From Oligoflexales bacterium (lineage in GTDB: Bacteria; Bdellovibrionota_B; Oligoflexia; Oligoflexales; JAPPIL01), in the NCBI GenBank assembly GCA_965215515.1, contig OZ244057.1, positions 96,001 through 160,000 of the forward strand: a stretch of 64,000 bases of DNA. The letters are read 5' to 3'. Shown piece after piece: positions 42,821 to 44,240 of this stretch; position 1 is the first letter of the stretch, and the number at the start of each line of letters is the position of its first letter. The notes beneath the pieces are model-generated. The model had not been told where the DNA came from. It was given only the letters and a program-made list of their open reading frames with translations, and did no database searches. A program made the translations under genes and the position numbers.

Positions 42821-43360
42821 ATGAACATGACAGCTGAATTAATGCTAGGCTTCGGGCGCACACTCAAGGCAGTTAGGGCGAGAGAGGGGTTGACCCAGAA
42901 AAAACTAGCTACTGCTATGGGTATTAGTGAGGGTTATCTGAAGCGTCTTGAACGTGGCAAGCTGGAGCTTATCGGCCCCAACGGGGTGTCGATAAGTCTA
43001 CTGGCAAAGCTGGCGGAATTCCTTAGCACTCATCCCGCGACACTATTTGCTGAGGTCATATCTAACACTGGCATCACCCAGAGGGACGACCGATCAAGAG
43101 AGCTAGACAAAGCCCTAACCTCTATCTCAAGCGCGGGTCTTGATGCCCTGCTCGCCTCTAAATCTAGGAGGAAAAAAACGCCGTTCGGCAACAATGTAAC
43201 TTGGAATTTGGAGATGGCGGCGGCTATGTCTCGCTTGCCAGACAAGGAGAGAGCCAGAATCGGGCTAGAAATTTTGCGGGGGATGGTCAACAACGGTCTC
43301 GTGAAGCAAAAGGATGTTGATTCAGATATGAAGAAGCTATTTGCCTTCTCTTCGCTGTAG
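42821..43360 (+). CDS. Xre-family HTH transcriptional regulator
   Basis: FGRTLKAVRAREGLTQKKLATAMGISEGYLKRLERG. Confidence 0.9.
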   Translation: MNMTAELMLGFGRTLKAVRAREGLTQKKLATAMGISEGYLKRLERGKLELIGPNGVSISLLAKLAEFLSTHPATLFAEVISNTGITQRDDRSRELDKALTSISSAGLDALLASKSRRKKTPFGNNVTWNLEMAAAMSRLPDKERARIGLEILRGMVNNGLVKQKDVDSDMKKLFAFSSL

Positions 43361-43446
43361 CTTCAGGAGGGATCGCAAATGTGCCAAAGCGAGATGCGGA
43401 CGGAGAAGCTGTTTCCCCGTCGCAACATCTGATTAGTTCTGTGTAT

Positions 43447-43671
43447 TTAGTTAGCTACTGGAGTGAATACATCGCCATGTCCACCAGCTGTGGAGATAAC
43501 CTCACGTGGTTTAGAGAACACACCCCCATGTCCTTTGGGAGATGGAGCAAACACGTCTCCACCACCACCAGATATGGAAGTAATGTCACGTGGTTTAGAG
43601 AACACGTCTCCACCACCGGCCAAAGCCGCTGATCCTAGAGCCAAACAAGCCAATACTACCAAGATTTTCAC
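43447..43671 (-). CDS. Small secreted repeat peptide (signal plus 2 x 28 aa, four G(D/G)VF motifs)
   Basis: SD aggag, GTG start, signal MKILVVLACLALGSAALA; exact 20-bp DNA repeat at 43502 and 43586 (period 84 bp). Confidence 0.8.
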   Translation of the reverse strand: MKILVVLACLALGSAALAGGGDVFSKPRDITSISGGGGDVFAPSPKGHGGVFSKPREVISTAGGHGDVFTPVAN

Positions 43672-43673
43672 AA

Positions 43674-44240
43674 CTAGCTCTCCTTTTCTCGTTCTACAAG
43701 ATCTATCTGGAACAACGTAGACATTCTAACATGACACACATCGTCTTGGCCAACAAGTTTTCCTGCGGATAACATCATTTCGGTTGCCTTGATAAGCATA
43801 TCCTTGGCTTTTAGGGCAATGCTAGTGGGTATGATACCAGAGGTGGCGTGCCCACCTGATATATTGTCTACACCTTGCTGTTCCGCAAGGTGGGCGATAT
43901 ATCTGGCCTTCAATGCTGCCACTTCGATTTTCTCCAGCTTTGATAAACCACTCGATCGCAATACACCCCGAATCGGCCTCAAACCAGAAGGTAAGCTTGG
44001 ATCTTCAATCGCTGCTCCATCTGCCAGAAACGCATCGCTGATCATCTTAAAGAGAGTTTCCTCAAGGATCTCTCCGACGCTAGTTTTAACTCCTGCATCG
44101 ATTTTTCTTCCCGCCCCGACATTTATCCAGCATTCAGTCACCTCGACGGGGTACTGCATGTAAACGCGGTAGGTCTTCGGTGTGTCCTCTGCTGTGATGC
44201 GGAACTGTTCAGTCCCCAAGTTCGCCGCTACTGTTGACAT
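43674..44240 (-). CDS. Hypothetical protein coupled to the repeat peptide gene
   Basis: Strong SD aggagg, 188 aa, stop 2 nt before the peptide start. Confidence 0.75.
   Translation of the reverse strand: MSTVAANLGTEQFRITAEDTPKTYRVYMQYPVEVTECWINVGAGRKIDAGVKTSVGEILEETLFKMISDAFLADGAAIEDPSLPSGLRPIRGVLRSSGLSKLEKIEVAALKARYIAHLAEQQGVDNISGGHATSGIIPTSIALKAKDMLIKATEMMLSAGKLVGQDDVCHVRMSTLFQIDLVEREKES

Follow-up and report, generated by a model that had tools for sequence, protein, structure and literature searches.

The subject of this study is a pair of adjacent genes, one coding for a cytoplasmic protein of 188 residues and the other for a putative exported pre-peptide of 74 residues, which lie at the regulatory end of an integrative conjugative element (ICE) in an Oligoflexales bacterium. 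They were found in a 64-kb window, by which we mean the whole stretch of DNA that was analysed, corresponding to bases 96001-160000 of a single-contig genome of 2.18 Mb. From about 30 kb onward in this window the GC content drops from approximately 0.56 to 0.38-0.50, and the low-GC part is the ICE. The initial annotation of the region, prepared from the DNA alone, had viewed the pair against the background of the Rap-Phr and arbitrium systems of Firmicutes; this frame has to be given up, as the order Oligoflexales falls in the Bdellovibrionota, a diderm lineage and not a Firmicute one.

Organization of the locus

Both genes are on the minus strand. The upstream one (43674..44240), which codes for a mildly acidic orphan protein, was delineated by its open reading frame (ORF), its family, its modelled fold and its ratio of nonsynonymous to synonymous substitution rates (dN/dS); the downstream one (43447..43671), recognized by its ORF, its homologues and its dN/dS, starts with GTG. 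Only 2 nt separate the two: the TAG stop codon of the upstream gene (43674-43676) is followed by TT and then by the GTG of the peptide, and a Shine-Dalgarno (SD) sequence, AAGGAG (43680..43685, minus strand), is placed 8 nt before this GTG, inside the 3' end of the gene for the 188-residue protein. The succession of SD, TAG, T(T/C) and GTG is kept in all five loci read, and this junction gives translational coupling of the peptide to the upstream gene. Convergent with the peptide gene is a plus-strand gene (42821..43360) for an Xre-type helix-turn-helix (HTH) regulator of 179 residues (Pfam HTH_31/HTH_3), whose C-terminal ~100 residues are of no assigned type. This gene is in turn divergent from the minus-strand genes for two Sigma70_r4 proteins, VirB2 and VirB4, and the intergenic region between the Xre and Sigma70_r4 genes spans 451 bp (42370-42820). 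The initial annotation had described a 74-residue ORF with a good SD, signal-peptide features and four G-x-V-F motifs, coupled to the 188-residue gene and converging on an Xre gene divergent from the transfer operon, and all of these elements are indeed present.

The first 18 residues of the pre-peptide (43618-43671, minus strand) are predicted to form a Sec-type signal peptide: Lys2 is followed by a hydrophobic stretch at residues 3-18 (mean Kyte-Doolittle value 2.64), and A-L-A precedes G-G, with cleavage after residue 18 being read from these features and not from the score of a predictor. The predicted mature peptide (43450-43617, minus strand) comprises 56 residues, 13 of them glycine, is hydrophilic (mean Kyte-Doolittle value -0.23) and contains the four G-x-V-F core motifs. 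The sole cysteine of the pre-peptide, residue 9 in the signal region, is conserved; a lipoprotein reading of this residue was considered and rejected, since by our own reading the signal would be too short. An RTX-like calcium repeat (G-G-x-G-D) was likewise set aside, the register being off by one, the units non-contiguous and a Pfam match lacking.

Two further features flank the pair. Between the convergent peptide and Xre genes there is a weak hairpin (43393..43429, minus strand; z -1.8), a possible terminator that does not appear in the list of the terminator scan. A block of ~100 nt lying 5' of the start of the 188-residue gene (44241..44345, minus strand), found to be conserved in an alignment of four loci, is a candidate for the promoter and leader of the operon; it includes the hexamer TTGACG (44324-44329, minus strand), and the consensus scan did not list it.

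The repeat-bearing peptide family

A search of 5.8 billion proteins yielded 32 candidate homologues of the peptide, 22 of them at E <= 10, with lengths of 58-100 residues (58-101 over all homologues). All 22 have the same layout; the same signal peptide and start are seen in 21, the remaining one being cut at its N-terminus. Their alignment points to a family unit with a core of about nine residues, G-(G/H)-G-(D/G)-V-F-S-K-P, the successive copies of which are joined by variable linkers; in the first two units the residues G, G, V, F and S do not vary, and the changes in length amount to whole in-frame units. As counted by regular expression, with one third unit added by eye, there are three units in 17 peptides, four in another four and five in one, and a paralogous peptide in the present genome has five. 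The two 28-residue halves of the mature peptide share 16 residues, to which extent the initial description of exactly two 28-residue units was sound, but the unit of the family is the shorter core in three to five copies, and the 2 x 28 layout appears to be a local form of this arrangement. At the DNA level, Tandem Repeats Finder detected no tandem array at the peptide gene.

The peptide had no match in Pfam, NCBIfam, PHROGs or PADLOC, and in the Protein Atlas it obtained only scores of 0.84 or less, which fall in the noise range. Estimates of dN/dS by the Nei-Gojobori method, from six pairs drawn from four loci, range from 0.17 to 0.41 for the peptide and from 0.08 to 0.18 for the 188-residue gene; both are real genes under purifying selection. 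The only longer protein with the repeat that turned up is P0024 (241 residues), in which the end of a homologue of the 188-residue protein and a five-unit peptide share one frame; its odd N-terminus and the change of frame suggest indel errors or a pseudogene rather than a natural fusion.

The 188-residue protein

The search of 5.8 billion proteins provided 27 relatives of this protein at E <= 0.001 among 251 candidates. A profile search of 1.84 billion proteins returned 19 representative clusters, and as all of these are of 188 residues or shorter, no fused forms of the protein were found. Within the phylum the gene is present in five of 131 genomes, namely the one studied here, all three others of its family, and one of the 16 of a second family, where identity is down to 25%. 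The protein had no match in Pfam, NCBIfam, PHROGs or PADLOC, its best match among PDB sequences had an E-value of 0.23, and the Protein Atlas held nothing usable; a scan of metagenome contigs with a profile from a shallow alignment produced 95 pattern matches, none of which was confirmed. When 28 members were scanned against Pfam at E <= 10, scattered matches alone were obtained and none to a tetratricopeptide repeat (TPR), in keeping with the initial observation that no TPR or RRNPP receptor is visible.

An AlphaFold2 model built on 28 sequences, down to 20% identity, reached a predicted local distance difference test (pLDDT) of 88.9 and a predicted TM-score (pTM) of 0.81; the divergent members were needed for a confident fold, the shallow alignment having given a pLDDT of 48.9. 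The model has a winged-helix-like domain at residues ~14-100 and a C-terminal half at ~98-181, with helices at 101-122 and 139-158. A VIA-align comparison with 48,161 chains gave six matches at Z >= 5 and none at Z >= 8. Winged-helix domains (Fur, PerR, MarR, ArsR, PadR, IscR, CodY and others), aligned to residues ~14-100, make up nearly all of the 50 rows listed, the best being 2fna_B (Z 5.7 over 75 residues, with a root mean square deviation (rmsd) of 3.0), and the tool itself warns that Z values of this order can reflect a common arrangement. With moderate confidence, the N-terminal domain may be regarded as winged-helix-like on the strength of the model, in which an invariant S85-G86 pair sits at the tip of a hairpin formed by strands 77-79 and 87-89.

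A classical DNA-binding winged helix does not fit the charge of this family. Of the 28 members, 27 have no net positive charge, and in 21 the helix that takes the recognition position (57-73) carries a net negative charge, unlike the basic recognition helix or DNA-binding surface of winged-helix regulators such as MarR, Fur, ArsR and PadR. A protein-protein role, for instance that of an anti-repressor, is as likely as DNA binding. The only positions kept across the divergent members are P21, P31, E33, L63, I67, S85, G86, I115, P138 and A142, and an enzyme is unlikely because no catalytic-type residues are conserved.

With regard to the C-terminal half, the only structures in the Foldseek list that cover just this region are three of HetR. 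Residues 98-181 of the model align with HetR 220-298 at Z 3.8 for 4j00_A (79 residues, rmsd 4.0) and at Z 3.7 for 4hri_B and 4yrv_A, the alignments spanning 74-79 residues, and the low-confidence model from the shallow alignment shows helix-strand-helix-strand in the same stretch. The corresponding part of HetR is its hood, described in a passage of PMC4649674 as residues 217-299 with an alpha-beta-alpha-beta arrangement, forming an entwined dimer and binding the PatS hexapeptide by strand addition. The modelled resemblance to the hood is weak, a lead and not a finding. Co-folding of the 188-residue protein with the mature peptide (residues 19-74) scored 0.00 against a mark of 0.32, which is evidence neither way. 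The protein also contains a nearly invariant G-G-H stretch at ~128-135, with G129 and G130 present in at least 90% of members; it resembles the start of the peptide core, which may be coincidence.

Linkage of the two genes across related elements

A search with the peptide in the 131 genomes of the phylum gave matches in five. Two of the matches (E 0.002 and 0.005) lie inside frames of 292 and 463 residues and were set aside as noise. The remaining matches are at five places in three genomes, and at every one of them the peptide is directly beside the 188-residue gene. Viewed from the other gene, all five copies of the 188-residue protein at 68% identity or above are accompanied by the peptide. 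One of these five pairs is decayed (G049:C63, loci L008/L013), with two TAG stops in the 188-residue gene and a peptide cut to one motif. The copies at 47-51% identity (L003, L006/L014 and L009/L015) occupy the same position without the peptide, and the copy at 25% identity (L007) has none either.

The surroundings are also retained. In seven of nine distinct loci an Xre homologue lies beyond the pair at a distance of up to ~2.5 kb, followed, where the flank reaches, by Sigma70_r4 and type IV secretion system (T4SS) genes; Xre, Sigma70_r4 and T4SS genes adjoin the 188-residue gene in L011, L012, L014 and L015 and in three copies in this genome, and the Sigma70_r4 pair is syntenic in the same four loci. 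The exceptions with regard to Xre are the decayed L013, near a contig end, and the distant L007, in which a different Xre-type gene of 100 residues is 630 nt away. The slot between the 188-residue gene and Xre is an insertion hotspot, having received AbiEi/AbiEii in L003 (G000:C1:1645611-1649132), a 270-residue ORF in L012 (4417-5229), and a predicted lipoprotein of 274 residues along with two small ORFs in L014 (10718-12221).

The co-occurrence of peptide, 188-residue gene and Xre, which the initial annotation had proposed as a check, holds in one direction: the peptide is always beside the 188-residue gene, and the pair is near Xre in every intact related ICE examined, but the 188-residue gene at 47-51% identity occurs without the peptide. 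These data are best explained by a lineage-restricted two-gene operon at the regulatory end of an ICE family of the Oligoflexales.

Comparison with known systems and a possible regulator-propeptide cassette

The pair resembles the RRNPP systems (Rap-Phr of ICEBs1 and phages, AimR-AimP) in that a small gene for a Sec-type propeptide stands beside a co-oriented gene for a cytoplasmic protein, on a mobile element and near a regulator. Such systems are delimited in PMC10075063 by five criteria: a propeptide of 10-100 residues, its export by Sec, a receptor of 250-500 residues, TPRs in this receptor, and genes that are direct neighbours. The present propeptide, at 74 residues, is within that size, the genes are neighbours across a 2-nt gap in all five loci, and the features for Sec export (Lys2, a 16-residue hydrophobic core and A-L-A) fit as a prediction. 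The presence of several copies of a short core in one propeptide is a further likeness, tandemly duplicated pheromone copies being described for Phr propeptides in PMC11343458. However, the other partner has only 188 residues and contains no TPRs, and for these reasons the pair is not a member of RRNPP; it is also unrelated to these receptors in sequence, and its host is a diderm of the Bdellovibrionota rather than a Firmicute.

A second likeness, in this case with a diderm host, is to HetR-PatX/PatS of filamentous cyanobacteria. As recounted in PMC12756182, PatX is a small precursor with a Sec-type signal that is exported and cut in the periplasm by the peptidase PatP, after which the hexapeptide binds HetR; in this system the regulator is cytoplasmic, and a short mature Gly-containing peptide binds its C-terminal domain (PMC12756182 and PMC4649674), a small alpha-beta-alpha-beta unit with which the C-terminal half of the 188-residue model aligns weakly. 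The differences are that there is no sequence relation, that the motif RG(S/T)GR is absent from all 22 peptides, that the N-terminal domain is of another type, and that the setting is an ICE instead of a developmental circuit. HetR itself (Peptidase_S48, PF03574) had no match in the genome, in the 28 members at E <= 10 or by way of PDB sequences.

The regulatory end of the element as a whole is reminiscent of the regulatory region of Tn916-type elements, in which small sigma-like genes are accompanied by an opposed Xre-type gene. Here two Sigma70_r4 genes head the transfer genes with Xre opposed to them, and a serine recombinase and an FtsK-like coupling protein are present, although the T4SS differs in having the diderm parts VirB2, a CagX/VirB9-like protein and TrbI/VirB10. 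We know of no counterpart to the pair of 188-residue protein and peptide in Tn916-type elements.

Invariant cores combined with variable linkers and copy number are the pattern of multi-copy propeptides, and the conserved coupling, the strict linkage, the place beside Xre, Sigma70_r4 and T4SS genes and the purifying selection on the peptide speak on the same side. We tentatively favour, as a possibility that falls short of an even chance, a cassette of a regulator and an exported propeptide that is analogous to Rap-Phr or HetR-PatX and a member of neither. In such a scheme the 188-residue protein, a cytoplasmic member of the ICE backbone, would cooperate with the Xre repressor encoded beside it, through binding to DNA or by acting as a partner of the anti-repressor type. 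The second gene would yield a Sec-exported disordered pre-peptide with three to five copies of a nearly invariant core, and co-translation would tie its output to that of the cytoplasmic 188-residue protein. The peptide would reach the periplasm, lose its signal peptide and be cut within the variable linkers, and the core peptides might then act as a signal by which the ICE switch is informed of ICE-bearing cells, in the manner of Phr for Rap in ICEBs1 and of PatX for HetR. Export, processing, sensing and an effect on transfer are all steps that we infer. At least four full OppA-type binding proteins are encoded in the genome; these indicate that import is possible and nothing more.

Several observations weigh against this reading. 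The existence of copies at 47-51% identity that have no peptide implies that the 188-residue gene does not need it, and the position in an insertion hotspot means that the peptide could be just another passenger. On the structural side, the winged-helix match is modest, the predominantly negative charge sits poorly with action on DNA, the match to the HetR hood is far under the level that the tool regards as meaningful (Z < 8) and within its stated noise range, and Foldseek returned no matches of the 188-residue model at E <= 0.001 in PDB or BFVD. Neither a processing protease nor an importer is encoded in the ICE. Moreover, we know of no peptide-controlled conjugation system in diderms, our literature searches not having been designed to settle the point. 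The idea of a peptide-controlled switch thus gains a diderm precedent in PatX-HetR and a weak structural lead, and faces the peptide-less relatives on the other side.

A more specific form of the proposal can be envisaged, in which periplasmically trimmed peptides of the G-H-G-D-V-F type are re-imported and bind a new kind of non-TPR receptor, combining winged-helix-like and HetR-hood-like parts, that sets the Xre switch. This would be the first case, outside cyanobacterial development, of a diderm conjugative element being controlled by a peptide that signals between cells, and we hold it to be unlikely. To our knowledge, peptide control of horizontal transfer has so far been reported from Firmicutes and the elements they carry (Rap-Phr, arbitrium and the enterococcal pheromones), and conjugation in diderms uses acyl-homoserine lactones or no signal. 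Among the titles and abstract openings of the literature on Oligoflexales and conjugation, nothing related was encountered. The pair is nevertheless real, orphan, strictly linked and located at the switch of a diderm ICE, and if it works at all it would do so like a receptor-propeptide cassette that is a member of no known one. As a strictly linked, selected pair of a cytoplasmic protein and a multi-copy peptide in such a position, it offers a concrete candidate for an inexpensive test, and should the signalling proposal fail, a defined context has still been given to two orphan families.

Alternative explanations

The peptide might instead have a role within the producing cell's own periplasm or envelope, be it as an accessory of the T4SS or pilus, in exclusion of entry or of phages, or in protection of the envelope, with no regulatory feedback; the 188-residue protein would then be an independent ICE protein (a regulator, an anti-repressor or a recombination directionality factor) sharing the transcript. 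We regard this explanation as doubtful, while according it real weight. A Sec-type signal in a diderm host would direct the peptide to the periplasm, small exported proteins are common in ICEs, the absence of the peptide from the divergent clade is what would be expected of an add-on, and the neighbouring slot gathers defence and passenger genes, as the AbiEi/AbiEii insertion in L003 and the lipoprotein gene in L014 illustrate. For an independent 188-residue protein it may be added that the ICE uses a large serine recombinase and that such enzymes often need a directionality factor that is unrecognisable. Set against this, translational coupling kept in five of five loci is unusual for a passenger gene; moreover, the peptide has no membrane anchor, its mature part is hydrophilic, and Cys9 by our reading lies too close to the N-terminus to belong to a lipobox. 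Entry-exclusion lipoproteins such as TrbK and Eex are small, exported and membrane-anchored, and are encoded within the mating-pair-formation operon; the present peptide is also small and predicted to be exported, but it is anchorless, repetitive and disordered, and its gene is outside the T4SS operon. An exclusion system, which the initial annotation had offered as one option, receives no positive support, and two ICEs with nearly the same peptide share the one genome, which is unexpected if exclusion were effective.

Binding of metal by a periplasmic cargo peptide, through the G-H-G-D repeats and an N-terminal X-X-His site for Cu(II)/Ni(II), appears very improbable. G-G-H is a copper/nickel site, 15 of 21 full-length homologues begin with G-G-H or D-G-H after the predicted cleavage, and most units hold His and Asp; yet the other six mature N-termini, including that of the window's own peptide, are G-G-G, so that a conserved His3 is lacking, the first two units of the window peptide are without His, and P0041 has none in any unit. 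His is evidently replaceable, the invariant residues being G, G, V, F and S rather than His or Asp, and no metal-resistance genes are nearby. The repeated cores in one precursor and the strict adjacency to an uncharacterized protein would also accord with the proposal of a multi-core precursor like those of ribosomally synthesized and post-translationally modified peptides (RiPPs), with the 188-residue protein as maturase. This proposal now looks most improbable: in place of the conserved catalytic residues or known maturase domain of an enzyme neighbouring RiPP precursors, the divergent 188-residue members have no catalytic-type residues and no family match, and the protein models as a winged-helix-like domain with a small alpha/beta domain. 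Further, the N-terminus of the peptide is a predicted hydrophobic Sec signal and not a recognition leader, a dedicated transporter or protease is lacking nearby, and the divergent copies of the 188-residue protein have no peptide at all. Finally, two ORFs of 83 and 85 residues overlap the peptide ORF on the opposite strand, as might be the case if the 74-residue ORF were a chance frame in a repeat-bearing spacer, a notion to which we give next to no credence. The low dN/dS was obtained in precisely this frame, 21 of 22 homologues share the start, the SD and the signal peptide, and all length changes are whole in-frame units.

The element and its genomic setting

The backbone of the ICE occupies 29333..41158 of the window on the minus strand, and consists of a large serine recombinase (29333-31126), Replic_Relax, an FtsK/SpoIIIE-type coupling protein, TrbI, a CagX-like protein, TraC/VirB4 (38031-40538) and the VirB2 pilin. 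The two Sigma70_r4 genes, identified by family library matches, are at the head of the T4SS operon on the same strand (41869-42369 and 41515-41817, together 41515..42369). Over the span 29333-42369 the element is a mosaic in which Firmicute-like modules are joined to diderm T4SS parts (VirB2, the CagX/VirB9-like protein and TrbI/VirB10); as the Firmicute-typical modules we count the large serine recombinase, the FtsK-like coupling protein, Replic_Relax and the small sigma-like genes opposed to Xre. The union of a diderm T4SS with modules for recombination and regulation of a Firmicute-like kind makes this ICE family worthy of attention, as does its copy number in a genome of this size. At least four related copies of the backbone (65-95% DNA identity) are present along with fragments, the copies being at 29333-64000 of the window and near 3-29 kb, 583-620 kb and 1631-1648 kb of G000:C1; the one at 583-620 kb is without a homologue of the 188-residue protein.

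A decayed second element is present in tandem at 55900-59200 of the window, where stretches of recombinase, relaxase and T4SS genes recur: 56376-56954 matches 29392-29970 at 99% identity, and 58121-59164 matches 36226-37245 at 80%. Of the Recombinase domain, no more than a part is left in the 426-residue ORF of this element (55900-57180). Defence-type cargo is found at 46528-53252 and 62318-63852, and includes a UvrD/GajB-like helicase, an LmuB-like SMC-type ATPase, a metallophosphatase, a ThsB-like TIR protein (PADLOC, 4e-75) and an AbiEi/AbiEii pair. An ORF of 553 residues (44807-46468, plus strand), divergent from the operon of the 188-residue protein, had no match in Pfam, NCBIfam, PHROGs or PADLOC and occurs, among the loci read, only in the two peptide-bearing ICEs of this genome. 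The part of the window with the gene pair (42700-44400) and a paralogous variant of it are also present as contigs in four DNA runs from one study.

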